From the IMG/VR virus record IMGVR_UViG_2529292972_000025: a stretch of 33,153 nucleotides of DNA; one strand, written 5' to 3'. The DNA is from a virus (Duplodnaviria; Heunggongvirae; Uroviricota; Caudoviricetes). The stretch's first letter is position 1; every line of letters starts with the position of its first letter. Positions 1-24,118 of the stretch are shown here, piece by piece. Position numbers and translations under genes: made by a program. A model generated the notes under the pieces. It was not told where the DNA came from. It made no database searches and saw only the letters and a list, made by a program, of their open reading frames with translations.

Positions 1-1362
1 ATGTTTAAACCGGAACTCCTTTCCCCGGCGGGAACGCTGAAAAATATGCGTTACGCTTTCGCTTATGGCGCAGATGCTGTTTATGCGGGCCAGCCGCGTT
101 ACTCCCTGCGTGTGCGCAACAACGAATTCAACCACGAAAACCTTCAGCTCGGCATCAATGAAGCCCACGCGCTGGGGAAAAAGTTTTATGTCGTGGTCAA
201 CATTGCACCGCACAACGCCAAGCTGAAAACCTTTATCCGTGACCTGAAACCGGTGGTGGAAATGGGGCCGGATGCGCTGATTATGTCCGATCCAGGGCTG
301 ATTATGCTGGTGCGTGAGCACTTCCCTGAAATGCCGATCCATCTCTCGGTACAGGCTAACGCCGTGAACTGGGCGACGGTGAAATTCTGGCAGCAAATGG
401 GACTGACCCGCGTGATCCTCTCTCGCGAGCTGTCGCTGGAAGAGATTGAAGAGATCCGCAATCAGGTGCCGGATATGGAGATCGAGATCTTCGTTCACGG
501 CGCACTGTGCATGGCCTACTCCGGTCGCTGCCTGCTCTCTGGCTATATCAACAAGCGCGATCCGAACCAGGGTACCTGCACCAACGCCTGCCGCTGGGAG
601 TACAACGTCCAGGAAGGGAAAGAAGATGACGTTGGCAACATCGTACACAAGTACGAGCCGATTCCGGTGCAAAATGTTGAGCCGACGCTGGGTATCGGCG
701 CGCCAACCGACAAAGTGTTTATGATCGAAGAAGCCCAGCGTCCGGGCGAGTATATGACCGCGTTTGAAGATGAGCACGGCACTTACATCATGAACTCGAA
801 AGATCTGCGCGCCATCGCCCATGTAGAACGCCTGACCAAAATGGGCGTGCATTCGCTGAAAATCGAAGGCCGTACTAAATCTTTCTACTATTGCGCACGC
901 ACCGCACAGGTTTATCGTAAAGCTATCGATGATGCCGCTGCGGGCAAACCGTTCGATACCAGCCTGCTGGAAACTCTGGAAGGTCTGGCGCATCGTGGCT
1001 ATACCGAAGGTTTCCTGCGTCGTCATACTCACGACGATTATCAGAACTACGAATACGGTTATTCAGTTTCTGACCGCCAGCAGTTTGTTGGTGAGTTTAC
1101 CGGTGAGCGCAAGGGGGACCTCGCGGCGGTAGCGGTGAAAAATAAATTCTCCGTTGGCGACAGCCTTGAGCTGATGACGCCGCAAGGCAACATTAACTTT
1201 ACCCTTGAGCACATGGAAAACGCCAAAGGCGAAGCTATGCCGGTAGCACCAGGCGATGGTTATACTGTGTGGCTCCCGGTGCCGCAGGATCTTGAGCTAA
1301 ATTACGCGCTGCTGATGCGTAATTTCTCCGGGGAAACTACGCGTAACCCCCACGGTAAGTGA
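1..1362 (+). CDS. yegQ: U32-family peptidase-like protein YegQ (TrhP, tRNA hydroxylation)
   Basis: 453-aa ORF from ATG at position 1; translated sequence recognised as E. coli YegQ/U32 family; host flank left of attL. Confidence 0.85.
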   Translation: MFKPELLSPAGTLKNMRYAFAYGADAVYAGQPRYSLRVRNNEFNHENLQLGINEAHALGKKFYVVVNIAPHNAKLKTFIRDLKPVVEMGPDALIMSDPGLIMLVREHFPEMPIHLSVQANAVNWATVKFWQQMGLTRVILSRELSLEEIEEIRNQVPDMEIEIFVHGALCMAYSGRCLLSGYINKRDPNQGTCTNACRWEYNVQEGKEDDVGNIVHKYEPIPVQNVEPTLGIGAPTDKVFMIEEAQRPGEYMTAFEDEHGTYIMNSKDLRAIAHVERLTKMGVHSLKIEGRTKSFYYCARTAQVYRKAIDDAAAGKPFDTSLLETLEGLAHRGYTEGFLRRHTHDDYQNYEYGYSVSDRQQFVGEFTGERKGDLAAVAVKNKFSVGDSLELMTPQGNINFTLEHMENAKGEAMPVAPGDGYTVWLPVPQDLELNYALLMRNFSGETTRNPHGK

Positions 1363-1446
1363 TTAATTTCGATTATTTTTCCCGGATGGAAAATTCTTAG
1401 AAACCGATCACATACAGCTGCATTTATTAAGGTTATCATCCGTTTC

Positions 1447-1533
1447 GCTGAAAAACATAACCCATAAAATGCTAGCTGTACCAGGAACCACCTCCTTAGC
1501 CTGTGTAATCTCCCTTACACGGGCTTATTTTTT
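1447..1533 (+). ncRNA. cyaR: CyaR (RyeE) Hfq-dependent sRNA
   Basis: Sequence GCTGAAAAACATAACCCATAAAATGCTAGCTGTACCAGGAACCACCTCCTTAGCCTGTGTAATCTCCCTTACACGGGCTTATTTTTT recognised as CyaR; ends in terminator hairpin plus U-run; 3' end overlaps the att core. Confidence 0.8.
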
Positions 1534-1534
1534 A
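1507..1534. repeat. attL core (28 bp)
   Basis: Identical to 32651-32678; flanking bases differ on both sides (t/a before, c/t after). Confidence 0.8.
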
Positions 1535-1597
1535 CGCGTAATACAATGAAATAAAAGGATTTATTTCTGGTCACGTCCACACATTGACCACATCGAC

Positions 1598-1623
1598 AAA
1601 AAAAGCCCCTCGACTGAGGGGCT
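1598..1623 (-). terminator. Intrinsic terminator downstream of ogr (bidirectional-looking)
   Basis: A-run 1598-1604, stem AGCCCCTC (1604-1611) / GAGGGGCT (1616-1623) with 4-nt loop; reads as hairpin plus U-run on the minus strand. Confidence 0.6.
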
Positions 1624-1636
1624 TCCTGTTTGTTAA

Positions 1637-1855
1637 TTACATCCACATAATTTGCTGCCCTGACGGCAACGGGTGCGGCCTTACGGCGTGGACTTCTCCC
1701 GGCTTCACGATGTATCGCTGTACCGACTCATAAGTGATGAACGTGGCGCTGCAATTCACGTTCTGACACTGGTGATAACGCTCTTTTGTCGTGTCAGTGA
1801 TATAGCGACTTGTACGCGCATGTGCGGCATGCTGGCATAAAGGACAATGAAACAT
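1637..1855 (-). CDS. ogr: Late-gene transcriptional activator Ogr (zinc finger)
   Basis: 72-aa product MFHCPLCQHAAHARTSRYITDTTKERYHQCQNVNCSATF... from ATG at 1855 (ORF track extends upstream to 1918); Cys-rich zinc-finger; P2 Ogr-like. Confidence 0.9.
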   Translation of the reverse strand: MFHCPLCQHAAHARTSRYITDTTKERYHQCQNVNCSATFITYESVQRYIVKPGEVHAVRPHPLPSGQQIMWM

Positions 1856-1936
1856 CGCGAGCACCTCTTCCGGTTTTGTTGATGGTGCCATTTTAGTTAA
1901 TTTATCCTTACAAAACAAACAGATAAATAAAACACA

Positions 1937-3100
1937 TCATTCTTCATCTTCTGTTTCGTACTCCACATCAGAAAGCCTGACCTCAAGCTCCAAGGACGTC
2001 GTGAAGCCGCTATTATTCAGAAAATGTGTCACCTTAGTGATTGTCCAGTCCTGCTCGTCTATGACGCGCTTAAAGCCTGACACTTTGACCGGCGTTTCCG
2101 TGTAAATATCTGCACGACCGGTAGCCAGGCTGATGGAGAACTCCGCAACGCCCCGTTGCAGCTTATCCCACTTCGCCTGAGCGGCGCGCATGGCCTGCGC
2201 TTTCGTGGCATATACCGTGGTCAGGGCAAAAACGTTGTCAGCCTCACCGGCCATGTATTCACCTTCGCGCGCTTCCGGTACTTTTGGCGCTTTCTTCTGC
2301 GTGACCGGTTTCGCTTTGGGGTGCTCCAGTGCGCGCAGGTGTTTTTCTTTCTTTTTGCGTTTCAGTTTTACCTTCTGCTTTTGAGGCTTCGGGTCTTTAG
2401 TGTGTAGCCATTTTGCCGTTACACCGGTGTAGGCTCCACGGTCAGCAATCGCAAAATGATGACGGTCGCCGTCGCTGCGGGTGATGATGACCTGCGGGAT
2501 TTTCTTACCGCTGGCCGTCACCCCCCGCCCCGCCTTAAGAAATAACAGTTTTCCCATTTTTACCGACACCTCACCGCCGTTGCGTTCAGCAAGGCGGGTC
2601 AGGAATTTTGCATCAGACTCCTGCGACTGGTCGATGTGCGGGATTTTAATTCCGGCCAGCGACGGAGCGACACTGGCTTCCAGCCTGTTACGGGTGGCTA
2701 TCGCCTCAACAATCGCACCAAGCGTGGTGTCATGCCAGGAGCCTTCCCGGCGGGAATTGAGCGTCCCGCGAAAATCTGCACTCCGGGCGCGGATGGTGAC
2801 CACATCCGGCGCGCCCCGGTGTTCAACCTCATCAACGGTAAATTTCCCTTTGCATACCAGGGCAAAACCTTTCCAGCCGATATACACCGTCAGGACAGCG
2901 CCACGAACCGGCAGTCCGACCTGCCCGTCGGCATCGTTCAGTTCAATATCAAGCTGGTCAGCCTCAAAGCCCCGGTTATCCGTCAGAGTCATGCTCATCA
3001 GACGGTCGCTGATATTGCCGGTAATATCCCTGCTGTCGAGCATCAGCATGTAATCCGGCGTCAGCGTACTGCCTGCATCAAATGTCAGTGCATCCAGCAT
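1937..3100 (-). CDS. D: Tail protein gpD
   Basis: 387-aa ORF immediately upstream of ogr, as in P2; position and size. Confidence 0.8.
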   Translation of the reverse strand: MLDALTFDAGSTLTPDYMLMLDSRDITGNISDRLMSMTLTDNRGFEADQLDIELNDADGQVGLPVRGAVLTVYIGWKGFALVCKGKFTVDEVEHRGAPDVVTIRARSADFRGTLNSRREGSWHDTTLGAIVEAIATRNRLEASVAPSLAGIKIPHIDQSQESDAKFLTRLAERNGGEVSVKMGKLLFLKAGRGVTASGKKIPQVIITRSDGDRHHFAIADRGAYTGVTAKWLHTKDPKPQKQKVKLKRKKKEKHLRALEHPKAKPVTQKKAPKVPEAREGEYMAGEADNVFALTTVYATKAQAMRAAQAKWDKLQRGVAEFSISLATGRADIYTETPVKVSGFKRVIDEQDWTITKVTHFLNNSGFTTSLELEVRLSDVEYETEDEE

Positions 3101-3579
3101 TATCCCGCCCCCGTCATACCTGTGAATTTAGTCGCCATACTGCCAGCCTTACCGATGAGCGATTCCGCCTGTTTACCGATATCGCCATAAAGCGCGGCCA
3201 GTGATTCGTCAACGCGGGTGAGCGACAGCGTAAAATCAATTTTTCGGGGTGTGCCGTCTGCAAAGAAAATACTCCCTGTTTCACTCACCCTGCTGATGAC
3301 ATACATGCCGTAAATCATGCCGGTGCCATCCAGCAACGGCCACGCCCGACCTTCCTCTGCCATCAGCCTGAGCGTGGTCATCGTCAGCTTGCCGCCGGTC
3401 AGTTCGGGATAAAGCACACCGGCCAGCGTCATGTTTTCCTCGCCAACGCCGAGAAACTGGTAGGCATCCCGTTTACCGATACGGGAATTTGACGGCCAGC
3501 GATAATCTGATTCACGCTGCATGGTCTGGTGTGGCAGCGTCTGGCGCATAAAAACAAACATACCTAGCGCGAGCATCAT
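3100..3579 (-). CDS. U: Tail protein gpU
   Basis: 159-aa ORF between T and D; P2 order. Confidence 0.8.
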   Translation of the reverse strand: MMLALGMFVFMRQTLPHQTMQRESDYRWPSNSRIGKRDAYQFLGVGEENMTLAGVLYPELTGGKLTMTTLRLMAEEGRAWPLLDGTGMIYGMYVISRVSETGSIFFADGTPRKIDFTLSLTRVDESLAALYGDIGKQAESLIGKAGSMATKFTGMTGAG

Positions 3580-3593
3580 TTTTCGTCACCTCC

Positions 3594-6041
3594 TTAACCG
3601 TCATGCATCATGCTGGCACGGGCGCGCGCACGTTTATCCCGCTCGTATTTTTCGAGCGCATCCTGTAACTGGCGGTCAAGCTGTGTCCCCGGCGCAGTAC
3701 CACCCGTCAGGCTGATGTGATATTCGTTTTTACTCTGGTCCACATAAGAGCGGCCAGCCGGTGCCGTGACCGGCTGATAAGCCTGATAGCCTGCATAAGA
3801 GCTGGTCGCCGGAATATAACCACCGGTGCCATACGTGGTGGCATGAGTTCTGGCGGCGGTCTGGTCAAGTGTGTCTGACTCTTTGTTGATGACCCCGAGT
3901 TTTTCCAGTACCCAGTCAATACCGCTGCGCAGTTTGTTGAACGCATTAAGCGGCAGCATCAGCGCGTCAGCCAGTGCCTGCCCGAACATGACGCCCGTGT
4001 CACGGCAACGGTTCAGGGTGTCCTGTGTGGCTTTGACCGGGGCAATCAGGTTTTTAAACCACTGCCACGCGGCCTGTAACTTTTCGCCCAGCCAGTCAAA
4101 CACCGGCTTAAGTGGCGTGAACAGTTCTCCCACCGGCGCAAATGCCGCTTTCAGCCCTTCCACCACACCGCCAAAGAATGCGCTGACAGGCTCCCAGTAT
4201 TTACGGATAAGCAACGCCCCGGCGACAATTGCAGCCACCACGGCCACAACCGGCCAGCTAATCGCCCCGATGGCCGTCATAACGGCACTACCAACCGTCG
4301 TGAAGATTGCCCCCATTGCGCCTGCTGCCGCGATGATGGCATTGATGCCGGTGATAACCGGCCAGGCTACGAGGCCAATGGCACCGATGACACCAGTCAG
4401 CGCCAGTGCACCACCGACAATGAGGCCGATGGTTGACGCCAGTGATTTGTTTTTCTGGATCCAGCCGTCGAGTTTTAACACATACTTTGTGGCCGTCTGC
4501 GTGAGATTACGCAGTGCGCCTTCCTGCTGGTCAAACAGGTCAGTCCCCACCGCCTCATAAGCGGACTGAAACTCCTTAAAGTCACCGCCGAGGTTATCCT
4601 GCATGATTTTAACCAGCTCTTCCGTTTTACCGTCCGAGGCTTTCAGCGTGGCGGTCAGCTTATCCAGTTTTCCGCTTGCTGCCGCTGCCAGTAAAACGTT
4701 CGCTGATTTCAGGGCTTCCTCACCAAAAATGGTTTTAAGGTATTCCCCCTTCTGAGACGTTCCCAGCTTGTGTTTATCAAAGCTGGCCTGAATCTCTTTC
4801 AGAATGGTGAACAACGGACGCATATTTCCCTTTTTGTCCGAGGTTTTAACGCCAAGCTCTTTGAGTGCATCCCATGCTTTTCCAGTCGGTGCCTGTAATC
4901 GGGTGACAACGGCGCTGCTACCCGTCCCCGCCATTGACCCCCTGATGTTATTGTCATGCAGCACACCTGTCATGGCTGCTGCCTGTTCAAGACTTACACC
5001 TGCCGTCTTCGCAACCGGGCCGAGGTAAGTCAGTGCATCACTGAGTCCCTGAAAATCAGCCGCCGACTTATTCATCGTTGCCGACAACACGTCGCCCACA
5101 TGGCTGACATCATCATTTGACAGTTGAAACGATGCCTTAGTCCCCAGCAACAGTTGCGCGTTTTCTTCCATCGACCGCTGATTCGCCAGTGCCATATTCA
5201 GCGTGACCGGCGTTGCCGCCTGAATAGCCGCAGCATCTCCACCCGCTTTCGCAATAATAATCTGCGCACCGGCCGCATCATCCGCCGAGGCGGCGGTATT
5301 GTCGCCGAGCTGGCGCGCCTGTTTGCGTAATGCGGCCATTTCGGTGGAGTCTTTTGCCACACCGAGCACGGCCTGTAATTCTGAGTTTTTCTGCGCAAAC
5401 TCATAACCGGGCATCAGCAGCTTAACTCCGGCCATCGTTCCCGCCGCCGCAATCCCCACACCGGCAGCGCCTACTGAGGCCATATTTCCGGCCAGTTCCT
5501 TTCCTGCCTGATAACGCTGTTTGACTGCGTTAAGTTTTGCCTGTTGTGCACTGACACGCGCCAGCGCGTCACGCTGACGGTTAAGCTGGGCGGTGGTTTC
5601 AGTGATACGGTTTTTCAGCCCTCGTTCATCATGCGCCAGATTACGGGTATTAATACCCGCCTGACTCAATTCCTGACGCTGGCGCTGTACCGACAGTCTC
5701 AGGCTGTTATATTTCGCCTGTAACTCAGACGCATTTTTACGCGCGGCTTCCATTGCCTTTGCCTGTGCATTTGTCGGTCGTTCAGTATTTTTAAACTGGA
5801 CAGCCAGAGCTGCGGCTTCCTGTCTGGCTTTTTTCAGTTCCTGACCAGTCACGGCGAGCTGTGCACTGGTCTTGCGAAATCCCTCAATACGGGATGCCTG
5901 ACCGTTCAGCTCGCGCAGTGATTTTTGTGTGTCCCGGATATCCCCCGACAGCGACTTGCTCGCTGTACGGATGGATTTAAACGGGCGGGATGCCTGGTCA
6001 ACAGCCCTGAGCAATACCTGTAATTTTACATTGTTACTCAT
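3594..6041 (-). CDS. T: Tail tape measure protein gpT
   Basis: 815-aa ORF, coiled-coil N-terminal part then Gly/Ala-rich hydrophobic region typical of tape measure proteins. Confidence 0.9.
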   Translation of the reverse strand: MSNNVKLQVLLRAVDQASRPFKSIRTASKSLSGDIRDTQKSLRELNGQASRIEGFRKTSAQLAVTGQELKKARQEAAALAVQFKNTERPTNAQAKAMEAARKNASELQAKYNSLRLSVQRQRQELSQAGINTRNLAHDERGLKNRITETTAQLNRQRDALARVSAQQAKLNAVKQRYQAGKELAGNMASVGAAGVGIAAAGTMAGVKLLMPGYEFAQKNSELQAVLGVAKDSTEMAALRKQARQLGDNTAASADDAAGAQIIIAKAGGDAAAIQAATPVTLNMALANQRSMEENAQLLLGTKASFQLSNDDVSHVGDVLSATMNKSAADFQGLSDALTYLGPVAKTAGVSLEQAAAMTGVLHDNNIRGSMAGTGSSAVVTRLQAPTGKAWDALKELGVKTSDKKGNMRPLFTILKEIQASFDKHKLGTSQKGEYLKTIFGEEALKSANVLLAAAASGKLDKLTATLKASDGKTEELVKIMQDNLGGDFKEFQSAYEAVGTDLFDQQEGALRNLTQTATKYVLKLDGWIQKNKSLASTIGLIVGGALALTGVIGAIGLVAWPVITGINAIIAAAGAMGAIFTTVGSAVMTAIGAISWPVVAVVAAIVAGALLIRKYWEPVSAFFGGVVEGLKAAFAPVGELFTPLKPVFDWLGEKLQAAWQWFKNLIAPVKATQDTLNRCRDTGVMFGQALADALMLPLNAFNKLRSGIDWVLEKLGVINKESDTLDQTAARTHATTYGTGGYIPATSSYAGYQAYQPVTAPAGRSYVDQSKNEYHISLTGGTAPGTQLDRQLQDALEKYERDKRARARASMMHDG

Positions 6042-6461
6042 TCGTGTTTCCGCTTCGCCGGAGCGCCTTTTCGCGCCATGTGATGAGTTCGGTCAGGCTC
6101 ATGGGATACAGTTCTGATGGCGGCCAGTGAAATATCACTGCCACATCCGCCATCAGGTCATCGACCGAGAGATTTTTCGGAAACGTCACTGCACCGAGTT
6201 CGGCGACAAAAAACCGACCACCTTACCTGCCAGCGCCACAAGGTCAGGCAGTTCCAGCGCGGCGACTTCCTGCTCAGTCAGCATCGGTGCGGTCATGCGC
6301 GGCAGCACCTTAATCAGTGCATCGACTTCGGAGTTTGCGACCGCAGCCAGACTGACACCGCGCAGCGTCCCCGCACTGGGTTTCATCAGCGTGACCTGTT
6401 CGATAACCTGCTCACCACGCTTGACCGGATTGTCCAGGGTAATCACATTTTCTTTGTTCAT
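6034..6461 (-). CDS. Tail assembly chaperone gpE+E-prime (programmed -1 frameshift product)
   Basis: Slippery heptamer T-TTT-TTG on minus strand at 6207-6213; the -1 frame is open for 59 codons (FFVAELGAVTFPKNLSVDDLMADVAVIFHWPPSELYPMSLTELITWREKALRRSGNTNE) to a TAA at 6034-6036 overlapping the T start. Confidence 0.75.
6186..6461 (-). CDS. E: Tail assembly chaperone gpE
   Basis: 91-aa ORF between FII and T; ends ...VVGFLSPNSVQ with a TTTTTTG slippery site. Confidence 0.8.
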   Translation of the reverse strand: MNKENVITLDNPVKRGEQVIEQVTLMKPSAGTLRGVSLAAVANSEVDALIKVLPRMTAPMLTEQEVAALELPDLVALAGKVVGFLSPNSVQ

Positions 6462-6517
6462 GGTTTTCTCACTTCTGAATCGGTGTTAACCGGTCAGCCG
6501 GGCTGACCGGATGAAAA

Positions 6518-7036
6518 TCACAGGCCGATATTGCGGCGGTGTTGCTCCAGCCGGTCGACGCCGTTCACCTTCTCAATCATGTTGATGGTGTCAATTTCGA
6601 CCAGCTCCTTACCGTCCATCGTCAGCCGGAAATAGGTGCATACCACGGAGATTTTCGACTCGGTGTCTTCTCCCTGTTTCCCCTCGCCGGTGTCGATTTC
6701 TTTCTGACGGCCACGCATGACCACCTCGACGGCCACCGTTTCGCCGGTATCGTCGCGCTGGTAAGAGCCTGCAAAACGAATCGGCACGGCATCCACACCG
6801 GTTGCGGCGTAAAGCTCCCAGATAACCGAATCCGGGAAGCCCCCGAGCGACCACTCCATTGACAGCGCATCGTCATCAAGGCCGAGGTCTACCGGTGCGC
6901 TGCCGTTCATCCCCGCACCGCGATAGTTTTCGAGCTTACGGGTCAGTTTTGGCAGCGTGACGGATTTTGCAACGCCCTGATAGCTGTAGCCGTTCAGAAA
7001 GACGTTCATTAACTTGAGTTTGCGCGGCATTGCCAT
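6518..7036 (-). CDS. FII: Tail tube protein gpFII
   Basis: 172-aa ORF downstream of sheath gene; P2 order. Confidence 0.85.
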   Translation of the reverse strand: MAMPRKLKLMNVFLNGYSYQGVAKSVTLPKLTRKLENYRGAGMNGSAPVDLGLDDDALSMEWSLGGFPDSVIWELYAATGVDAVPIRFAGSYQRDDTGETVAVEVVMRGRQKEIDTGEGKQGEDTESKISVVCTYFRLTMDGKELVEIDTINMIEKVNGVDRLEQHRRNIGL

Positions 7037-7048
7037 CGGTCAGGCTCC

Positions 7049-8239
7049 TTAATTGCTGTTAACCGAGGTAACCAGACTTGCCAGGTATCTGGAAGTAATA
7101 CGCTGGCGCAGGGTCAGGTTTTCGAGAGGAGGCACCGGGGTATAGTCGTAGTCGATATACAGTTTTCCGGCCTTGAGGGTTTCCGCATCGTTGGATTCTT
7201 CGCTGAACCAGCAGGTCGCATCCACGATATAGCCGTTTGTTTTCAGCTCACGGAATTTGGCATTGATGCCGTCAACGATGTCGCGAATCAGCGTTGCGGT
7301 GATGGGCTTGTCCACCGCCCACATGTGCGCCTCAGCCATCGTGTCGGCCAGCACCTGCGCGGTGCGGGTGTAGTTTTCAAAGAGGAACAGCGGGTCATCA
7401 GAGCAGGTACGGTTACCCCAGAAGCGGAAACCGTCGCGGCGAATCAGCGTTGTGACGCCTGCCTCGTTCAGCAGGTCAGCATCGGTGCCGGACTCCTGCA
7501 AATCCCAGAATACAGATGCGCTGATGCCGGTAACACCGTTCACCCCGACGTTGGACAGCGTTTTATGCCAGCCCTGCTCCTGGTCGATTTTAGCGCGCAG
7601 ACCCAGCGCACGGGCGGTGGCATACGCGGTGGCGGTGGTACTGGTGACCGTATCCCATGCGAGGAAATCCGGCCAGATGACCATCAGCTCACGCTGGCTG
7701 AAATTCTGGCGGTAGGCTTTCACCTCGGAAATGGTTTTACAGCCCCATGCGCTGATATACCCGAAAGCGCGCAGCTTCTGACAGACTGATGCCAGTGCAA
7801 CAGCCACCTCTTTGGTGTCCAGTCCCGGCACACCGAGAATACGCGGTTTAACACCGGTTACCGACTCCGCCGCCAGCAGGGCTTTCAGTCCGGTGTACTG
7901 ACCGTTTTCGTCGGTGGTACCGATGATATTGGAAACGGTCTGCGCGAGTTTTGTTTCTTCGTCGTCGCCGGTGCCGTCTTCCACACGCACGACTACGGTG
8001 ACCGGTTTTGACTGGTCAGCGATGGCCTGCAACGACGCCGCCAGCGTGCCTTTTTTACCGGCCTTTGCAATTGCGCTTTGCACATTGGTAATCAGCACCG
8101 GTTTATTGAGGGGGAAGGTTTCCGCATCCGCATCGCTGGCCGTGCAGACCATGCCGACAATGGCAGTGGATACGGTGGAAATGACGCGGGTGCCGTCGTT
8201 AATCTCCAGCACCTGCACGCCGTGATGATAGTCACTCAT
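7049..8239 (-). CDS. FI: Contractile tail sheath protein gpFI
   Basis: 396-aa ORF; P2 order and size. Confidence 0.9.
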   Translation of the reverse strand: MSDYHHGVQVLEINDGTRVISTVSTAIVGMVCTASDADAETFPLNKPVLITNVQSAIAKAGKKGTLAASLQAIADQSKPVTVVVRVEDGTGDDEETKLAQTVSNIIGTTDENGQYTGLKALLAAESVTGVKPRILGVPGLDTKEVAVALASVCQKLRAFGYISAWGCKTISEVKAYRQNFSQRELMVIWPDFLAWDTVTSTTATAYATARALGLRAKIDQEQGWHKTLSNVGVNGVTGISASVFWDLQESGTDADLLNEAGVTTLIRRDGFRFWGNRTCSDDPLFLFENYTRTAQVLADTMAEAHMWAVDKPITATLIRDIVDGINAKFRELKTNGYIVDATCWFSEESNDAETLKAGKLYIDYDYTPVPPLENLTLRQRITSRYLASLVTSVNSN

Positions 8240-8298
8240 CCGTTTAACTCCGTGGTTAATGGGTGAGTGGTATTTTCAGTTGTGCCGGAGATGTCAGG

Positions 8299-8892
8299 CT
8301 ATTTGTCCCGGTTGGCTAAGGGATGACACAATTTATTCTTTGTCGCTGATGAGGGGAATTTTTTATAGAGCGTGGACAGGCCAATATCAAAAATCAGCGC
8401 CACACGTTGACGAGATTCCCCCGCAGCCAGCAACCGTCCGACCTGCTCCCACTCACTCGCGGTGAGTTTCGGTCGTCTGCCACCAATACGACCTTTGGCT
8501 CTGGCCGCTTCCAGCCCGGCCCGAGTCCGCTCGACAATGAGTTCTCGTTCCATTTCAGCCAGGGCACCCATCACATGAAAGAAAAAACGCCCCATCGGCG
8601 TGCTGGTATCAATAGCATCTGTCAGGCTGCGAAAATTAACGCCGCGTTCGCGCAGTTCCTCAACCAGAATGACCAGATGCCGCATACTACGCCCCAGCCT
8701 GTCCAGCTTCCAGACTACCAGAGTGTCACCTGCTGATAATGTCCTGAGCAGTTTTTTCAGTCCCGGCCTGTCGGACTTCGTGCCGCTGATTTTGTCCTCA
8801 AAAATCAGCTCACATCCTGCGCACTCCAGCGCATTACGCTGCAATTCCGTGTTCTGGTCATTTGTTGACACGCGTACATAGCCAATAAGCAT
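8299..8892 (-). CDS. Serine-recombinase DNA invertase (Gin/Cin/Pin/Hin family)
   Basis: Product MLIGYVRVSTNDQNTELQRNALECAGCELIFEDKISG... near-colinear with Gin as I recall it; start taken at second ATG (8892), 6 nt after a GGGGG Shine-Dalgarno; sits beside the invertible segment. Confidence 0.9.
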   Translation of the reverse strand: MLIGYVRVSTNDQNTELQRNALECAGCELIFEDKISGTKSDRPGLKKLLRTLSAGDTLVVWKLDRLGRSMRHLVILVEELRERGVNFRSLTDAIDTSTPMGRFFFHVMGALAEMERELIVERTRAGLEAARAKGRIGGRRPKLTASEWEQVGRLLAAGESRQRVALIFDIGLSTLYKKFPSSATKNKLCHPLANRDK

Positions 8893-8947
8893 GAGCATCC
8901 CCCTGAATAAAAACCGGAGATGATGCCAGTTACCCGTTATCTCTGCA

Positions 8948-8973
8948 TTTTCATAAACGTTGGTTTGGGAGAA
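8948..8973. repeat. Invertase crossover site, left (26 bp, hix/gix-like)
   Basis: TTTTCATAAACG-TT-GGTTTGGGAGAA; inverted relative to site at 10809-10834; 12-bp half sites around a 2-bp core like hix TTATCAAAAACC-TT-GGTTTTCAAGAA. Confidence 0.7.
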
Positions 8974-9411
8974 GGCTCTGCATTACCTGTTGGTGTCCCT
9001 GTTCCGTGGCCTTCAGCTACGCCGCCAACAGGCTGGCTGAAATGCAATGGCGCTGCCTTTGATAAGGTTAAATATCCCCGTCTTGCTACAGCATATCCAT
9101 CAGGGAAACTACCTGATCTCCGCGGTGAGTTTATTCGTGGCTGGGATGATGGGCGCGGCATTGATACAGGGCGTGCTTTATTGAGTATTCAGAGTGATGA
9201 AGTCAGAAAGCTCGCATTAAAATACTGGGGACCAGCTTCAAACAGTTCACCATCAAAAACATTTGCACTCAGCGACAGTGCCGGTGGCGGGTTGTACACG
9301 GATGGAATAAGTCAGGCAAGCGGTGGGATTATCAACGCTTTTCAGCTCCCTGGCGGTAACGAAACCCGCCCACGAAATGTTGCATTTAACTATATCGTGA
9401 GGGCTGCATAA
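8962..9411 (+). CDS. Alternative tail-fibre C-terminal segment (Sv-prime), promoterless, in frame with crossover site
   Basis: Reading frame continues from crossover site as GLGEGSALPVGVPVPWPSATPPTGWLKCNGAAFDKVKYPRLATAY...; would fuse in frame to the constant part of H after inversion. Confidence 0.7.
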   Translation, partial: GLGEGSALPVGVPVPWPSATPPTGWLKCNGAAFDKVKYPRLATAYPSGKLPDLRGEFIRGWDDGRGIDTGRALLSIQSDEVRKLALKYWGPASNSSPSKTFALSDSAGGGLYTDGISQASGGIINAFQLPGGNETRPRNVAFNYIVRAA

Positions 9412-10013
9412 TGGATAATGCTGTATTAAATAGCGAGTTTATTGCCACGAAGGCGGGGAATATTACCGTCTATAACTATGATAGTGAAACACGGGAATAT
9501 ATTTCCACATCAACTGAATATCTTGCTGTGGGGGTCGGTATTCCAGCATGTTCCTGTCTTGATGCACCTGGCATACATAAGGTTGGTTATGCAATCTGTC
9601 GTTCTGTGAATTTAAATTCATGGGAATATGTGCCAGACCATCGCGGTGAAATCGTCTATAGCACAGAAACAGGAGAATCAAAAGAAATCACAGCTCCGGG
9701 TGATTACCCTGAAAATACAACCACTATCGCCCCTTTATCTCCATACGATAAATGGGATGGTGAGAAATGGGTGACCGATACTGAGGCACAGCATAGCGCC
9801 GCAGTCGAAGCGGCAGAAGCACAGCGCCAGTCACTGATTGATGCTGCTATGGCTTCCATCAGTCTGATTCAACTGAAATTGCAGGCCGGACGGAAACTGA
9901 CGCAGGCAGAAACAACCCGACTTAACGCCGTGCTGGATTACACTGACGCGGTGACGGCAACAGATACCAGCACCGCGCCGGATGTCATCTGGCCTGAACT
10001 GCCGGAGGCGTAG
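9411..10013 (+). CDS. Tail-fibre assembly chaperone, alternative (U-prime)
   Basis: 200-aa ORF starting at TAATG overlap with Sv-prime stop; inside invertible segment. Confidence 0.7.
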   Translation: MDNAVLNSEFIATKAGNITVYNYDSETREYISTSTEYLAVGVGIPACSCLDAPGIHKVGYAICRSVNLNSWEYVPDHRGEIVYSTETGESKEITAPGDYPENTTTIAPLSPYDKWDGEKWVTDTEAQHSAAVEAAEAQRQSLIDAAMASISLIQLKLQAGRKLTQAETTRLNAVLDYTDAVTATDTSTAPDVIWPELPEA

Positions 10014-10437
10014 GCCATTTAATATCTGGCGCACCGGAAGTATCGACCAGTTCCAGTGCGTCCAGATAATCCAGCCACAGATTATATTGCGCCAGTTCCT
10101 CGCCTTTCAGACGACCAATAGCCGCTTTACCAGGCCATTGTTTACTGTTCATATAATCGTTGGCCTGATTAATTAGTAGCTGTCTTTCTGATTCAGTAAT
10201 TTCAATAAGTTCTTCATGCGTAGGGGCAGGAATATCCGCCCACGCGGGCAGCCCATCACCTCCGGCAATACGGATTTTTCCTTGTGGCGGTTCAGCCATA
10301 AATTCACTGATAATATTTTGACTCACCTCCTTAGCATCTGATAAATCCCATCCCTCTGATTTATATTTATCAATCATATCCACAGGGAAAAAAGCATTAT
10401 GCCTTGCGCTATAAACATATTCGTTCATATAAATCAT
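9985..10437 (-). CDS. G: Tail-fibre assembly chaperone (gpG-like)
   Basis: 150-aa ORF directly downstream of H; true start may be ATG at 10428 (AGGA Shine-Dalgarno); C-terminal ...DIKWPTPPAVQAR resembles the U-prime C-terminus. Confidence 0.7.
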   Translation of the reverse strand: MIYMNEYVYSARHNAFFPVDMIDKYKSEGWDLSDAKEVSQNIISEFMAEPPQGKIRIAGGDGLPAWADIPAPTHEELIEITESERQLLINQANDYMNSKQWPGKAAIGRLKGEELAQYNLWLDYLDALELVDTSGAPDIKWPTPPAVQAR

Positions 10438-10448
10438 CCTGAATAAAA

Positions 10449-11870
10449 TTATTCACCAACAGCCCACCAACTGTAAGTCATTGACACCTTGTCGCTGGTT
10501 GATGCAGTTCTGTAAGCAGAATTAAAGCCGGTTAATGTTGGGCCTTCTACGGACATAACGAATCCACGCCCTGCACCAAAAGGCGCACCGCCATCGCCAG
10601 AATGGGTAAGAATGGCGATATCCGCTTTTTTAGGGAAAGGGATAGGAAATGTAATCCTCATTGTTTGCGTCGATAATTTCGGCATAGCCTCACCTCGACC
10701 ATATTGCAGGATTTTCCCGTTGGGTAATTTCATCCATCCATCACCACTGGCAAACGAGGCCATGTCCGGTATCTGATTTTCCCCTGTCCCCACATTCCGT
10801 TTTGCCGCTTCTCCCAAACCAAGGTATGCGAGAAGACCAGCCACATCCTTTCCACTCAAATTAGTAAGCGTATTGTCCAGCGGTTGTTTGCCTGCCAGTG
10901 CATTAAGCACTGTTGTTGAAAAGTTAGGGTCATTCCCCAGCGCCGCCGCCAGTTCATTCAGTGTATCCAGTGCCGCAGGGGCAGAACCCACCATTGCCGC
11001 AATTGCTGATTTCACAAAAGCCGTGGTGGCAATCTGTGTATTGTTGACCGACTGTGCCGCAGTAGGTGCTGTTGGCGTTCCGGTAAGTGCGGGACTCGAC
11101 AGCGGCGCTTTCAGTGCCAGCGCATTGTTAATGGTGGTGCTGAATTTCGGGTCATTGTTAATGGCTGCGGCAATTTCTTTCAGTGTGTCCAGCGTGGCTG
11201 GCGCGCCGTTAATCAGAGCGGTAATAGCAGCCTGTACAAACGCAGTGGTCGCAATCCGCGTGGTGTTATTTCCTGCATCAGGCGTCGGCGCTTTTGGTTC
11301 TCCGGTAAATGTCGGATTATGTTTCTGTGCATACTGGGTATGAGGATCCTGTGCGGCAATGTGGTTTCTCATCTGGTCATCCACATACAGCCTTAATTCC
11401 AGGACTTCATCATCCACGTATTTACGGGTCGCCAGTACCACCGACGGGTCGATTTTCAGCGTGATGGCTTCGGTATTCGTGACAACCAGAATCATGCGGA
11501 TAGTCTGGGTACGACCACTGCCTTCCTGTAACTGCGGTTTGTACGTTTCCGGGCAGTTCGCCACCGCAATGAGTACGCCTTCATCATCATAAAGCCCAAT
11601 CTCACGGATCCAGAATCCGCCCTCGTTCTCAGGGATGATTTGCTCCGCAATAATCTGGCTCTGGTTATTCGGGTCAACACTCAGAAGATTCAGCGGCGCG
11701 ATGCGTTTCTGGTTAATCAGTTTTGTCTGTGCCGGGTCTGGTGTCGGCAAGACACCATTCGCATCACCAACGGCCATTTGCGTCAGATTCAGCTTACTGC
11801 CGAGCATCGTCGCGTTAGCCAGCCGTGCTGCGCCCTGATTAGTCAGAATGGCGTAGTATTTCACTGTCAT
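10449..11870 (-). CDS. H: Tail fibre protein gpH (constant N-terminal part fused to variable part Sv)
   Basis: 473-aa ORF; crossover site 10809-10834 lies inside it and encodes ..YLGLGE.. Confidence 0.85.
   Translation of the reverse strand: MTVKYYAILTNQGAARLANATMLGSKLNLTQMAVGDANGVLPTPDPAQTKLINQKRIAPLNLLSVDPNNQSQIIAEQIIPENEGGFWIREIGLYDDEGVLIAVANCPETYKPQLQEGSGRTQTIRMILVVTNTEAITLKIDPSVVLATRKYVDDEVLELRLYVDDQMRNHIAAQDPHTQYAQKHNPTFTGEPKAPTPDAGNNTTRIATTAFVQAAITALINGAPATLDTLKEIAAAINNDPKFSTTINNALALKAPLSSPALTGTPTAPTAAQSVNNTQIATTAFVKSAIAAMVGSAPAALDTLNELAAALGNDPNFSTTVLNALAGKQPLDNTLTNLSGKDVAGLLAYLGLGEAAKRNVGTGENQIPDMASFASGDGWMKLPNGKILQYGRGEAMPKLSTQTMRITFPIPFPKKADIAILTHSGDGGAPFGAGRGFVMSVEGPTLTGFNSAYRTASTSDKVSMTYSWWAVGE
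10809..10834. repeat. Invertase crossover site, right (26 bp)
   Basis: TTCTCCCAAACC-AA-GGTATGCGAGAA on plus strand; left half is the reverse complement of GGTTTGGGAGAA at 8962-8973. Confidence 0.7.
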
Positions 11871-12478
11871 GCGTTTACTCTCAGGTTATCAATTAAATGA
11901 ATGGCCGAGGCCGGGAAATAATCCCCTCCGACAATAATGGCCTCCGGGGTGTAGGGATAAACCGTCAGGGCGTCACCGTGATAGCATCCCGCACCGGCAA
12001 AAATGTTGCCGGTTGTACTTAAACTGATAGCCAGTCCCGTCAGATGGCGGCTTGCCGGTTTTGCATCAGCAACGAGACGCTCCAGCTCCTGATACATTTC
12101 TTCGGTAATACCCTGCTCAAGCACGCCAACAACGATACGGAACGTCCCCGGCTCCTCGTTGAGCTGCCACCACTCCCTCACCTCAATCAGATAGCCGAGC
12201 GGCTCCACCACACGGCGAATCGCACCAATAGTGCCCTTATGACAGTGGATGAAATACGCATCGCGGATAACAGCGCGTTTTGTCGCTTCCGGCCAATTAT
12301 CATCCCAGCGGTCAACCGAAAATGACCACGCCAGCCACGGCAGCAGATTTGCCGGGCAGGTGTCCGGGTTCCACAGCTCACGAATACTGACCGGCGTTTT
12401 TTCAATTTCCGCACAGGCTTTTGCGGCGGCAACTTCAAGCGGTGATGAGCCGGTCGGCAGCAGTCGCGAATCACTCAT
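11867..12478 (-). CDS. I: Baseplate protein gpI
   Basis: 203-aa ORF, GGAGG Shine-Dalgarno, stop overlaps H start; P2 order. Confidence 0.8.
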   Translation of the reverse strand: MSDSRLLPTGSSPLEVAAAKACAEIEKTPVSIRELWNPDTCPANLLPWLAWSFSVDRWDDNWPEATKRAVIRDAYFIHCHKGTIGAIRRVVEPLGYLIEVREWWQLNEEPGTFRIVVGVLEQGITEEMYQELERLVADAKPASRHLTGLAISLSTTGNIFAGAGCYHGDALTVYPYTPEAIIVGGDYFPASAIHLIDNLRVNA

Positions 12479-13379
12479 CCGAGCCTCCGGTCACAACGCT
12501 GTATTCGGTACAGAAAGACGCCTGCGTATTGTTGAGCACGATGTCGGCCAGTGGTGCAGCCAGTTCGACACGCTGCACGCCTTCCACATGCAAAGCGGCA
12601 TAAATGGCAGACAGACGGATGTCGCGCCCCAGCCGGTGCTGTGCCGTGATGTACGCTTCCAGTTTTTTCACGGCAGCAGCGCGGATGGGTTCGCTTTCGG
12701 GACCAGGGTAAAGGTAAAGCGTGGCGTTTATCTGGTATTCAACGATGGCGGCAGACTGCACGGTCACGCGGTCGGCCACCGGCCTGACGTCCTCGCCATT
12801 AAGGGCGTTACGCACCGCCGCCAGCAGGTCTTCGGATGCCACACCGTTATTTTCGCGAGACAGCACGGAGATGGTGACGCAGGCCGGAGAAGGGCTGGTG
12901 ACAGAGATATCTGCGACACGCCCGTCGGCACTGCGACCATGATACTGATAGGCACCCACCGACCCGGCGACGCTTAAACCTTCAAACGCCTGCTGAATAC
13001 GCAGACGATAATCGGTGTCAGATTCCATCACTGCCGGTGTCGGCGGGATGGTCGAATCATCTGCCGGGGTGATAGTCAGGCGCGTGGTGTTGTAATTGGC
13101 ACCAATCACATCAAGGTCATTACCGGCGGCACAGGCCAGCATCACCGCCCGTGCGGCCTCATTCACACGCTGACGCCAGATAAGCTCACGATAAGCATTT
13201 TCCTCCAGCAGTTTGACGAGAGGCTCAGATTCCAGCGTCAGGGTACGGGCGACCGCCTCCTGCTGGTCTTCCGGGTAAAGGGAAATCAGTGTCGCCTTGC
13301 GTTCGGCAAGAATGGTTTCAAAGTCCAGCTCCTCGACCACATCCGGTGCGGGTAGCTGGTTCAGGTCGATAATCGGCAT
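12471..13379 (-). CDS. J: Baseplate protein gpJ
   Basis: 302-aa ORF; P2 order. Confidence 0.85.
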   Translation of the reverse strand: MPIIDLNQLPAPDVVEELDFETILAERKATLISLYPEDQQEAVARTLTLESEPLVKLLEENAYRELIWRQRVNEAARAVMLACAAGNDLDVIGANYNTTRLTITPADDSTIPPTPAVMESDTDYRLRIQQAFEGLSVAGSVGAYQYHGRSADGRVADISVTSPSPACVTISVLSRENNGVASEDLLAAVRNALNGEDVRPVADRVTVQSAAIVEYQINATLYLYPGPESEPIRAAAVKKLEAYITAQHRLGRDIRLSAIYAALHVEGVQRVELAAPLADIVLNNTQASFCTEYSVVTGGSDE

Positions 13380-13383
13380 GGTT

Positions 13384-13731
13384 TCAACTCACAGGGATGG
13401 TTAACGAAAGTGGCTGGCCGGTGTCGTTGTGCTGGCCGGTTAATGTAACTGTCATTCGCCCGTCAAAGCTGCGCGCCGTGGTGACGGATGACAGGGTGAC
13501 GCGGGGTTCCCATTTCAGCACCGCCATGTAACAGGCGACCTTAATCTGCAACTCAAGTGCCGGGGTCTGCGGCTGGTCAATCATTGACGCCAGCAACGAG
13601 CCGTAATCACGACGCATCACCCGTGAGCCGACCGGTGTGCGCAGGATATCGCCGATACTCTGGCTGATATGCTCAAGGTCAGTGACAGTCTGGCCATCAC
13701 TGCGATTCATTCCGAGATAACGCGCTGTCAT
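13384..13731 (-). CDS. W: Baseplate protein gpW
   Basis: 115-aa ORF; P2 order. Confidence 0.85.
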   Translation of the reverse strand: MTARYLGMNRSDGQTVTDLEHISQSIGDILRTPVGSRVMRRDYGSLLASMIDQPQTPALELQIKVACYMAVLKWEPRVTLSSVTTARSFDGRMTVTLTGQHNDTGQPLSLTIPVS

Positions 13732-14363
13732 AGAGGACTCCCGGTTGTGCCGCCGCTGTCGCCGGGGTGTTTATGGGTATGCAGTACCTTACCGTTTGAT
13801 GAGAGTTCACCGCCGGTGTGTTCAATGTTGCCGCGCATCGTCCCGCCCTTCTGCACTTCCAGCGTGCCGGTAATCAGCTTGTTTGTGCAGACCACCTCCG
13901 GTGTGTCCAGGGTGACGCGGGTTGATGCTTTCACCATGACCACCGGCACCGTGGCAGTAACAGAATCAGAAGCCGTCACGCTGGCCGTTTTAATTCCGCT
14001 TGCCGTGAGTGCACTGGTTTCAGGTTCATACTCAATCACCGCCCCGTCAGGAAAACGGATATGCAGGGCATCCGCCGACGCAGACGGCGCGGGGTTATCA
14101 CCGGAATAAATCCCCGGCAGAACGAACGCCGTGTCGAGTTCACCGCCCACGGCCAGAATCAGCACCTGTTCCCCCACGGAAGGTGCCCACCATGTGCGCG
14201 AACGACCGGCGCGATGGGTCAGCCACTGCAGCCAGTCGGTACACATGCCGCCGGTCTGCACACGGCAGCGACCGGCGTTAAGGTCGGTTTCGACGATAAC
14301 GCCGGTGCGAATCATGTTGCGCAGTGCGCGCGCGAGTTCCTGAATATTTGCGAGAGTGTTCAT
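13728..14363 (-). CDS. V: Baseplate spike protein gpV
   Basis: 211-aa ORF, stop overlaps W start; P2 order. Confidence 0.85.
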   Translation of the reverse strand: MNTLANIQELARALRNMIRTGVIVETDLNAGRCRVQTGGMCTDWLQWLTHRAGRSRTWWAPSVGEQVLILAVGGELDTAFVLPGIYSGDNPAPSASADALHIRFPDGAVIEYEPETSALTASGIKTASVTASDSVTATVPVVMVKASTRVTLDTPEVVCTNKLITGTLEVQKGGTMRGNIEHTGGELSSNGKVLHTHKHPGDSGGTTGSPL

Positions 14364-14429
14364 AACGGGAAGGATGCCGCCGGGTCATACCGGCGGCAAT
14401 GTGACGATGAGGTGTCGGGAATGGCACAA

Positions 14430-14882
14430 CTAACGGTCGAGGTGCGCCAGAATAATCTCTTCAATCATCTGCACATCCTCACCGGTGAAGCCGAGCAGAG
14501 GGCGCGCCGGATAATCAATTTTCTTACCGTCTTTCCGGTTTTCTTCCGACAGACCAAACTGATGCACACTGGCGATTTTCGGTGACTTCCCGCCGTAAAA
14601 TTCCATTGCTGCCTGTTCCGGGCTGGCGCGGATATGCAAAAAACGACTGGTGATAAGTTTCGCAAACATTTTTCGCTTAACGCGACCGGTCTTTTTTCTG
14701 GCGCTCTGCTGCTGGCGTGGCGCGTAGGGTGTGCCGTCCGGGGCTTTCTGTGCCATCACCCGACGCTGCTGACTCTGCCGCAGACGTTTCGCCAGTTCGG
14801 CACTCAGTCGCCGACGCCCTGACGGTGACAGCGATTCAATCAGTCCGGTCAGCCGGTCTTCAAAACGCTTAAACTCATTCAT
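14430..14882 (-). CDS. S: Tail completion protein gpS
   Basis: 150-aa ORF; P2 order. Confidence 0.8.
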   Translation of the reverse strand: MNEFKRFEDRLTGLIESLSPSGRRRLSAELAKRLRQSQQRRVMAQKAPDGTPYAPRQQQSARKKTGRVKRKMFAKLITSRFLHIRASPEQAAMEFYGGKSPKIASVHQFGLSEENRKDGKKIDYPARPLLGFTGEDVQMIEEIILAHLDR

Positions 14883-15342
14883 CCCACTTGCTCACCAGTT
14901 CGCCATTGATATAAAGCTCCATCGGGCGGGTGACCGGCTCCGGCGGCGTGGGTTCCGGGATATTCTTCACATGCAGCGCGCCGTCCACCTCACTGACCAG
15001 CGTGCGCTCGGTCAGCATCAGGCTGATGCTGATATCAAAGCTGCTGTCATTGTTGATGTCTGCATAAAACGTGAAACCTTTTTTCTGGCCTTCGTCGGTG
15101 GTCATGATGTCGGGCTGATTTTCCCGCAGCCACGCCAGCACCGGCACGATGAGCAGGTCAAAATCACCGGTAAAGTCGGTCACAATGACATTGAGCGTGT
15201 AACGCTTTTCGAATGACAACGACGCCGCCAGCGTGGAGGCAATACTCCCGTTATCCACGAATATCCGAAGCATCTCTGGACTGGTTTTCAGCACCGTGAC
15301 GGCATCAGTCAGCGCCCTGCGCAGGCTGTCGGGTTTGAGCAT
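14875..15342 (-). CDS. R: Tail completion protein gpR
   Basis: 155-aa ORF; P2 order. Confidence 0.8.
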   Translation of the reverse strand: MLKPDSLRRALTDAVTVLKTSPEMLRIFVDNGSIASTLAASLSFEKRYTLNVIVTDFTGDFDLLIVPVLAWLRENQPDIMTTDEGQKKGFTFYADINNDSSFDISISLMLTERTLVSEVDGALHVKNIPEPTPPEPVTRPMELYINGELVSKWDE

Positions 15343-15595
15343 CGTTTTCGTCCTGACAGTGTTTAATCATTTTTACCTGGCTGGCACAGCGTGCCAGCGC
15401 GTTCTCAAGCTGCCGGATATCGGCACTTAAATCGCCGTTCGTCTGCGGGTCACTGCCCGGCATCGGGCAAAGGCTCACTTTCGGGCAGGCGTTGGCGACA
15501 ATCACTGGCGTCTGCGCAGGCGGGGCGCTGGTGCAACCGGCGCACAGCATCAGGCAGGTCAGCGCCGTACCAGCGGCGAAAATCTTCGTTTTCAT
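15305..15595 (-). CDS. lysC: Outer-membrane spanin lipoprotein LysC (Rz1-like), embedded in lysB
   Basis: Start at ATG 15595 (GAGG Shine-Dalgarno) gives MKTKIFAAGTALTCLMLCAGC... signal peptide with lipobox-like LCAGC; alternative frame inside lysB 3' end. Confidence 0.7.
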   Translation of the reverse strand: MKTKIFAAGTALTCLMLCAGCTSAPPAQTPVIVANACPKVSLCPMPGSDPQTNGDLSADIRQLENALARCASQVKMIKHCQDENDAQTRQPAQGAD

Positions 15596-15875
15596 TAAGT
15601 AACCTCGTGATGGTTTTCTCGCGCTGTGCTTCACGCTTCGCGGCGTTCTCCAGTTCCTGACGCAGTGCCACCTGCGCCAGCTCGTTTTTGTCTGCCCTGG
15701 TGAGGGCAACATGAAGCTGATTTTTCAGCATGGTGATGGTCGCCTGCTGTTCACTGGCGACGTTGTTCGCCCTGTCCAGCGAGGCGCGCAGGCTGGCATT
15801 TTTGTGTTTCACCAGAAACAGACCGGCCACCGCCAGCGATAACAACACGACCAGCACAATCATCAGCTTTGACAT
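15450..15875 (-). CDS. lysB: Inner-membrane spanin LysB (Rz-like)
   Basis: 141-aa product with N-terminal transmembrane helix then coiled-coil; P2 order. Confidence 0.8.
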   Translation of the reverse strand: MSKLMIVLVVLLSLAVAGLFLVKHKNASLRASLDRANNVASEQQATITMLKNQLHVALTRADKNELAQVALRQELENAAKREAQREKTITRLLNENEDFRRWYGADLPDAVRRLHQRPACADASDCRQRLPESEPLPDAGQ

Positions 15876-16288
15876 GGTTCCCGCCCCTCAAAACGCTGAC
15901 GGCAGGCCGTACGTATCAGCCGGAAGAACACCGATGCCACGAGATAAATCAGCGCGGTAAAAATCCACCCGGCAGCAACCAGCGAGATAAACGTCGCCAC
16001 CATCACTACCAGAGCCACTGGCCGCCTGCGCCACGGCACCGGCTGCAAAAACAGCGCCGTGACAATTTTCACGGCCAGCGATTCCGGCGGCAGCTCCCGC
16101 CCGTAGCGTTCCAGCACATACTCAGTGGCATACACCCCGACACCACCGGCAACCACACAGATAACCGTCGCCAGAATCGCCCAGGCAGCGACAAAACTGA
16201 CGGCCACGCTCTGCGGATAAATCAGGGACAGTGCCAGCATCAGCGCCAGCGACACGTTCAGCATCAGTGAAAGGGATAATTTCTTCAT
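15863..16288 (-). CDS. lysA: Lysis regulator LysA (membrane protein)
   Basis: 141-aa multi-transmembrane product between K and lysB. Confidence 0.75.
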   Translation of the reverse strand: MKKLSLSLMLNVSLALMLALSLIYPQSVAVSFVAAWAILATVICVVAGGVGVYATEYVLERYGRELPPESLAVKIVTALFLQPVPWRRRPVALVVMVATFISLVAAGWIFTALIYLVASVFFRLIRTACRQRFEGREPCQS

Positions 16289-16302
16289 GGTGTTTACTCC
16301 GT

Positions 16303-17081: not shown

Positions 17082-17084
17082 GCG

Positions 17085-17797: not shown

Positions 17798-17896
17798 GAC
17801 TACCTCTGAAAAGTCGGGCGGTGGACGCCGGTGCAGTGTCAGGTGATTCACCCTCACTGACCGGCGTGCCGCCCTGGCGCGGGGCGCATTCGGTTG

Positions 17897-18640: not shown

Positions 18641-18643
18641 CGG

Positions 18644-19717: not shown

Positions 19718-19771
19718 AGTTATTCCTGAAATTAAGGGTTAATCGTGAAGGTTTTCCCGGACTGACGCCGG

Positions 19772-23606: not shown

Positions 23607-23610
23607 ACAT

Positions 23611-23981: not shown

Positions 23982-24000
23982 TGAGTCGACTTCATTGTGG

Positions 24001-24102: not shown

Positions 24103-24118
24103 ATTGATAAAGATCCTT

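Follow-up and report, generated by a model that had tools for sequence, protein, structure and literature searches.

A P2 prophage at the 3' end of the cyaR sRNA gene in Escherichia coli O157:H7

cyaR and its host neighbourhood

The stretch of DNA analysed here, which we refer to as the window (33,153 nucleotides in its entirety), has a host gene at either end: yegQ on the left and yegR on the right. The sRNA gene cyaR follows yegQ, and a prophage lies between cyaR and yegR. The features of the flanks and of the first phage sequence next to cyaR are:

1..1362, + strand: yegQ (trhP), left-flank host gene; an ORF, annotated in FRIK944, whose record is 100% identical, and in further genomes
1397..1412, + strand: CRP-like site TTAGAAACCGATCACA, which precedes cyaR and has its centre at about -42.5 relative to 1447; a two-mismatch match to TGTGAN6TCACA
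1447..1533, + strand: cyaR (ryeE) sRNA gene, intact; from Rfam RF00112, the fold and identity to K-12
1498..1525, + strand: CyaR intrinsic terminator hairpin with an 11 bp stem and a 6-nt loop, then TATTTTTT; from a terminator scan and RNA fold
1602..1625: terminator hairpin of ogr and the F operon; 23/24 against the terminator annotated in P2
32836..33153, - strand: yegR, coding for a 105-aa predicted lipoprotein, right-flank host gene inside a putative fossil island; an ORF, annotated in the K-12 derivative and in O157

Over its left 1600 bp the window shows 100% identity to E. coli O157:H7 FRIK944, whose annotation has the same prophage downstream of yegQ. The limits of the window are the start codons of yegQ (1) and of yegR (33153), and in many IMG/VR viral contigs the phage attachment core described below falls at the same coordinate, 1507-1533; this suggests that the window was delimited automatically, as a prophage call with host flanks included.

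The sRNA gene is recovered as Rfam family RF00112 (CyaR_RyeE), the sole Rfam family in the window, by a + strand match at 1445-1530 which covers the full model (1-85) and scores 100.7 bits against a gathering score of 47 (E = 3e-19). The interval 1447-1534 comprises the 87-nt cyaR transcript unit and, as its last position, the final base of a repeat considered in the next section. The gene is identical to K-12 cyaR, and its RNA folds into an anti-SD hairpin and a terminator hairpin (z = -3.2). The latter belongs to a Rho-independent terminator whose long U-tract forms the Hfq-binding 3' end of the RNA: the 11-bp stem is followed by UUAUUUUUU, and the sequence read 3' of the hairpin at 1498-1525 is UAUUUUUU.

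According to the literature, CyaR is under CRP control. The CRP-like site at 1397-1412 is suggestive only: two-mismatch matches to the same pattern, of which it is one, are not enriched in the window (19, against 14 expected). The promoter region of cyaR is identical to that of unoccupied strains, and CyaR is likely to be expressed normally in the lysogen. As regards the 3' end, read-through of the CyaR terminator has been reported to be substantial on plasmids in an hfq mutant (PMC9765468). In a lysogen such read-through would reach the ogr/F-operon hairpin, within which the terminator scan places a + strand terminator-like site (1603-1624), as a potential back-up terminator; at an empty site it would head toward yegR, in the antisense direction.

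The att cores and recombination at the cyaR 3' end

Two direct repeats delimit the prophage, and the sites that would serve its recombination lie around them:

1507..1534, + strand: attL core, a 28-bp repeat whose first 27 bp are the P2 attP core; from a repeat search and comparison with P2
1532..1565: attP IHF site (predicted), now within attL; transferred from the P2 annotation, 29/34 identical
1569..1596: P arm with Int arm-type sites (predicted); 28/28 against annotated P2
32537..32563: P' arm with Int arm-type sites (predicted); 27/27 against annotated P2
32561..32634: attP Cox binding region (predicted), now within attR; 74/74 against annotated P2
32651..32678, + strand: attR core, equal to the 3'-terminal 27 nt of cyaR (loop, 3' arm and U-run) and lacking a promoter; from the repeat search

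The repeat, AATCTCCCTTACACGGGCTTATTTTTTA, is exact at 1507-1534 and 32651-32678, with both copies on the + strand, and occurs only these two times in the window. Extension of the match stops at exactly 28 bp, the bases differing on either side, and its chance expectation is 0, no match having been obtained in 100 dinucleotide-preserving shuffles. The P2 reference was GenBank AF063097.1, where attP is annotated at 24356-24382 and where the minus strand corresponds to the + strand of the window. Compared base by base, the first 27 bp of the core are the P2 attP core in reverse complement, 27/27 for both copies. The original prediction had put the core in just this relation to P2, and the alignment with P2 attP by which it proposed to check this gave no difference over the 27 bp. 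The P2 record also annotates the Int core site, an IHF site, the P and P' arm-type Int sites and Cox sites, all with corresponding places in the window; from their positions and sequence, the arm-type, IHF and Cox sites around the core would be those annotated in P2.

Homology to P2 sets in at 1507, the first base of the repeat: in a megablast of 1300-4300 against phage records the alignments to P2 and its close relatives (~97% identity) begin at query base 208. Conversely, when the prophage is excised in silico, joining the window up to 1534 with the sequence from 32679 on, the resulting 405-nt site is present uninterrupted, at 405/405, between yegQ and yegR in the O157:H7 strains PV15-279 and PNUSAE151638. 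This match to an unoccupied attB shows integration to have been conservative and cyaR at attL to be, base for base, the native gene.

A short repeat could in principle be a coincidental or duplicated copy of the cyaR terminator, unrelated to site-specific recombination. The mere presence of the repeat is the one point that speaks for such a copy, and we regard it as having next to no likelihood: no shuffle produces the match, the repeats mark precisely both limits of the P2 homology, their sequence is that annotated as the P2 attP core, and sister strains have the precise empty site. The ends of the P2 homology, the attP annotation, the empty site and the core comparison together refute it, and the two copies are best read as the cores of attL and attR.

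With the repeat understood as the att core, its relation to cyaR can be specified. Of the terminator hairpin, the repeat supplies the loop and the whole 3' arm but only the final 2 nt of the 5' arm, and it also contains the U-run that follows; the other 9 nt of that 5' arm (1498-1506) come from the host alone. The earlier statement that the core forms the terminator stem and U-run thus stands for the loop, the 3' arm, the U-run and those 2 nt, but not for the other 9 nt of the 5' arm. That the 3' end of CyaR coincides with the repeat, as was also stated, is borne out by the Rfam match, which ends inside it. An intact cyaR had been expected at attL, and the joined flanks are indeed identical to the unoccupied O157:H7 site (405/405), the gene itself being that of K-12 too. 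At attR, where a promoterless 3' fragment had been expected, only the last 27 nt of cyaR are present, and the Rfam search, RNA fold and terminator scan find there no cyaR-type hairpin, terminator-like site or Rfam match.

A hairpin of GGGCTTAT and ATAAGCCC at attR was considered as a terminator and rejected; it folds no better than shuffles (z = -0.6).

We are nearly certain, from the sequence comparisons given above and in the next section, that the window represents the segment of E. coli O157:H7 from yegQ and cyaR to yegR with a complete P2 (Peduovirus P2) integrated at the cyaR 3' end, and with cyaR rebuilt; no sequence was found that contradicts the reading of P2 at cyaR. In P2, Int and IHF recombine the attP core with the identical 27 bp of the chromosome, and Cox, together with Int and IHF, reverses the reaction; the phage is not SOS-inducible. 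In the window, Int-mediated site-specific recombination would have joined the 27-bp attP core with the identical 3' end of cyaR, which comprises the loop and 3' arm of the terminator together with the U-tract. Such an exchange would rebuild a full-length cyaR with its terminator at attL, adjoining the phage P arm and ogr, and would leave a promoterless 27-nt tail of cyaR at attR, adjoining int. Both cyaR and its Hfq-binding U-tail would be regenerated because the phage copy covers everything 3' of the crossover region. Excision would probably use Int, Cox and IHF, as in P2.

In gene order, cos and orientation relative to cyaR the window is the same as P2 (Peduovirus P2, AF063097 / NC_001895) at its preferred cyaR/ryeE site between yegQ and yegR, whereas the identity with the host site amounts to 28 bp in the window rather than 27. 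There are similar arrangements at other loci: for phage 186 (tRNA-Ile), for Fels-2/SopEphi (ssrA) and at the Salmonella ryeB/sdsR locus, a phage copy of the 3' part of a structured RNA, including a hairpin, restores the gene, as it would here (PMC3448106, PMC3603311). In contrast to targets of the tRNA and tmRNA type, the target in the window is the terminator of an Hfq-dependent sRNA and not a tRNA-like acceptor or T-arm, and the core is short (27-28 bp). The locus is a clean textbook example of a host gene surviving integration, since the temperate phage brings along its own copy of the terminator it targets, here that of a regulatory sRNA. For annotation, it allows the prophage boundaries to be set exactly to the base, and it indicates that cyaR be entered as intact and that the fragment at attR not be entered as a second cyaR.

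Gene content of the prophage

The principal features of the prophage are:

1507..32678: P2 prophage, 31,172 bp including both cores; from blastn and tblastn against P2
1637..1855, - strand: ogr, late-gene activator; 72/72 aa identical to P2 Ogr; Pfam Ogr_Delta, 1e-21
23776..23794, - strand: cos, the 19-nt P2 cohesive end sequence; exact match to the P2 cosL 19-mer
23819-24088, 24312-24749 and 26147-26539: three small unassigned ORFs in the cargo slot
24874-25824, - strand: retron reverse transcriptase; PADLOC RT_VI, 4e-105; Pfam RVT_1
25802-26122, - strand: retron HTH protein; HTH_VI, 8e-31
30753..31028, - strand: cox, excisionase and Pc repressor; 91/91 aa identical to P2 Cox
31143..31442, + strand: C immunity repressor; 99/99 aa identical to P2 C
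31558..32571, + strand: int, P2 tyrosine integrase; 99.7% to P2 Int over 337 aa; Pfam Int_N and Phage_integrase

The order of the prophage is attL-ogr-D-U-T...Q-cos-cargo-A-B-cox-C-int-attR. In a tblastn search with all P2 proteins, full-length matches were obtained for Q, P, O, N, M, L, X, Y, K, R, S, V, W, J, I, H, FI, FII, E, T, U, D, ogr, int, C, cox, B and A. The essential proteins are all full length and 82-100% identical to those of P2, except for the diverged tail fibre protein H, and most of the structural proteins are 95-100% identical. The attP core is that of P2 at 27/27, the Int arm and Cox sites show no difference, Int reaches 99.7% identity, and C, Cox and Ogr are each at 100%. 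Three accessory slots depart from the reference P2: a retron (RT and HTH protein) stands in place of old/tin/orf91; a Cin-like invertase with an invertible tail-fibre segment stands in place of fun(Z)/G; and orf30 is absent. The tblastn search with the P2 proteins finds no counterpart of orf30, G, fun(Z), orf91, tin or old in the prophage. These genes are non-essential according to the P2 record, apart from G, at the position of which there are two Caudo_TAP tail-fibre assembly genes instead.

The fun(Z)/G region is occupied by a serine invertase of the Cin/Gin type (8299-8898; Resolvase and HTH_7 domains). Next to it is an invertible segment of ~1.9 kb, bounded by 27-nt inverted repeats at 8948-8974 and 10808-10834, which carries an alternative tail-fibre C-terminus and two tail-fibre assembly genes. 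H itself is only 42% identical to P2 H; it is a continuous ORF of 473 aa (10449-11870) with an N-terminal Phage_tail_fib domain and a C-terminal gp53-like domain. In the PGAP annotation of FRIK944, an identical record, the tail-fibre gene H is nevertheless split and labelled pseudo, with part of it given as an incomplete pseudogene; this split is probably due to the Cin-type invertible segment.

The pseudogene call raises the alternative that the element is a defective, cryptic P2-like remnant comparable to the ogrK-D' relic of K-12, rather than an intact and potentially active prophage. Besides the call of an incomplete pseudogene in FRIK944, the low identity of H to its P2 counterpart and the loss of G, orf30, fun(Z), old, tin and orf91 would fit such decay. 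However, the P2 record classes every missing gene except G as non-essential, and G is replaced by the two Caudo_TAP genes; H is an uninterrupted ORF with both of its domains; the invertible segment accounts for the PGAP split; and all other essential genes, cos and the att sites are intact. We therefore consider a defective remnant improbable and favour an intact prophage, which, judging from its gene complement, would be viable.

The old/tin/orf91 slot is a published defence hotspot of P2-like phages (PMC9122126). In the window it is replaced, between 23795 and 26738, by a type VI retron, which comprises the reverse transcriptase and HTH protein listed above. A search of Rfam for the retron msr/msd RNA near the reverse transcriptase returned nothing at E <= 1.

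Occurrence of the site and relics of earlier prophages

The frequency of the integration was assessed in a set of 5426 complete E. coli genomes, a junction being counted at coverage of at least 80%:

ogr-side junction (attL): 1195/5426 (22%)
int-side junction (attR): 812/5426 (15%)
empty site or small insert only: 4564/5426

The exact core is also present in more than 120 IMG/VR viral contigs. The site has been described before: the genome paper of E. coli W lists 'cyaR RNA' as the insertion site of Wphi2 (P2) in strain W, of ogr-D' in K-12 and of P2*B in strain B (Archer 2011, PMC3032704, Table 2), and Bobay et al. 2013, citing Wassarman et al. 2001, treat ryeE in E. coli as a previously known phage target (PMC3603311). 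In the Phollow preprint and in the 2026 P2/P4 hotspot paper cyaR goes unnamed. The placement of P2 at cyaR/ryeE is thus confirmed as correct, already known and very common. As a published site, with the same junction in about 15% of complete E. coli genomes, it offers no new biology, and the putative scar of an older P2-type integration, discussed below, is the sole element that might add something.

Outside these genomes, a diverged P2-like attL, with a P arm of ~80% similarity, occurs at the same core both in Kluyvera intermedia and in ECDA1023, a record which is labelled E. coli but has a Kluyvera-like cyaR. This implies that P2-type phages use the cyaR core beyond Escherichia. Two Enterobacter hormaechei records have a cyaR identical to that of E. 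coli, followed by unrelated sequence.

The K-12 derivative EC600 has the order yegQ(trhP)-cyaR-core-ogrK-D' pseudogene-yegR. Its remnant (ogrK and yegZ/D') displays the same attL junction as the window, running from cyaR through the core, the P arm and ogr into the 3' end of D; its identity with the window is 97.2% across 749 bp, and cyaR, the core, the P arm and the ogr terminator align to the attL of the window without gaps. K-12 keeps only ~0.6 kb, whereas the window has the full 31-kb phage. At the end of the EC600 remnant (L003 7136-7163), the interior of D runs directly into the second core, of which the last 18 nt, CTACACGGGCTTATTTTTT, are left, and after which the normal right flank follows. 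The fusion of CTACACGGGCTTATTTTTT to gene D implies that the deletion which removed the K-12 prophage ended inside the core. The original prediction had proposed an ogr-like remnant, ogrK, at this very locus of K-12, and this is what EC600 exhibits, down to the truncated attR core; its further proposal that the present prophage is the intact form of that relic is upheld by the alignment with EC600, in which the window is the intact counterpart.

The right flank of the prophage bears a second set of sequences resembling P2 attachment sites:

32679..32740: host B' flank, a putatively decayed copy of the P2 P-arm region, with CATTGACCACATCGA at 32711-32725; from local alignment

Here CATTGACCACATCGA matches the P-arm Int sites exactly, and the alignment continues into the bases around it. 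The alignment with the P arm scores 18 in the E. coli flank (shuffle maximum 17) and 26 in a cryptic-clade Escherichia, L025 (shuffle maximum 16), with 0/2000 shuffles reaching the score in either case; L025 has an even longer P-arm/IHF-like stretch beside an otherwise 'empty' core. To place these sequences we searched for the exact core in one genome per species and then compared the flanks. The core directly adjoins yegS in Kluyvera, as it also does at attR of a P2 prophage in E. ruysiae, and in these flanks the comparison finds neither yegR nor any P-arm-like sequence. To the right of its core, E. coli regains homology with the E. ruysiae core-to-yegS junction after 767 bp. Just before the point of resumption lies a degenerate core, matching at 17/27 in O157 and at 21/27 in L025, which is followed by the same B' sequence in all; as background, core matches of at least 17/27 occur at 2 of ~66,000 positions in the window. 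Immediately inward of the degenerate core there is also an alignment with the P'-proximal part of attP, at the same distance from the core, which in E. coli is weak taken alone (score 12, reached by 27/2000 shuffles) and in L025 scores 14 (reached by 1/2000). The yegR segment is missing from E. ruysiae and Kluyvera, and direct repeats of the att core lie at both its ends. A phage origin of yegR itself is not supported: the protein has no Pfam family, and its matches in the phage database are only prophage records that include the host flank.

We consider it fairly likely, and the simplest reading, that the ~770 bp between the cyaR core and yegS, with yegR, are the last relic of an earlier P2-type prophage. 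Under this scenario the intact core would have been kept by selection on cyaR, the P-arm and P'-proximal sequences would have decayed, and a degenerate second core would have persisted by the ancestral yegS flank; the present P2 would then have integrated into the surviving core of the older prophage. It is also conceivable that the P-arm-like and core-like sequences of the yegR flank are host sequence that a P2 ancestor captured through imprecise excision, or that they are functional host-encoded Int sites. The B' flank is truly homologous to the P arm, but this gives, by itself, no direction of transfer. Against capture or a host function stand the lack of the yegR segment in E. ruysiae and Kluyvera, where the core abuts yegS, the bounding of the segment by an intact and a degenerate core (17/27 in E. 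coli and 21/27 in L025, where the background has 2 in ~66,000 positions at 17/27 or better), and the layout of the remaining similarities: P-arm-like sequence inside the left end and P'-proximal sequence in register inside the right end are the arrangement of an integrated element, not of a captured flank. We therefore rate this alternative as unlikely and prefer the relic of an older prophage. In the literature searched, which did not extend to the classical P2 att-site papers, we found no report of a fossil P2-type prophage at yegR, and the fossil is possibly unreported. If it is real, the window would record tandem, serial lysogeny at cyaR, with yegR as a domesticated or left-over cargo gene of the older prophage.

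In some E. coli the 405-nt empty-site query matches in two pieces that span 575 bp (for example NZ_CP113503.1, 1887125-1887699), which implies an insertion of ~170 bp at or near the cyaR-yegR interval.
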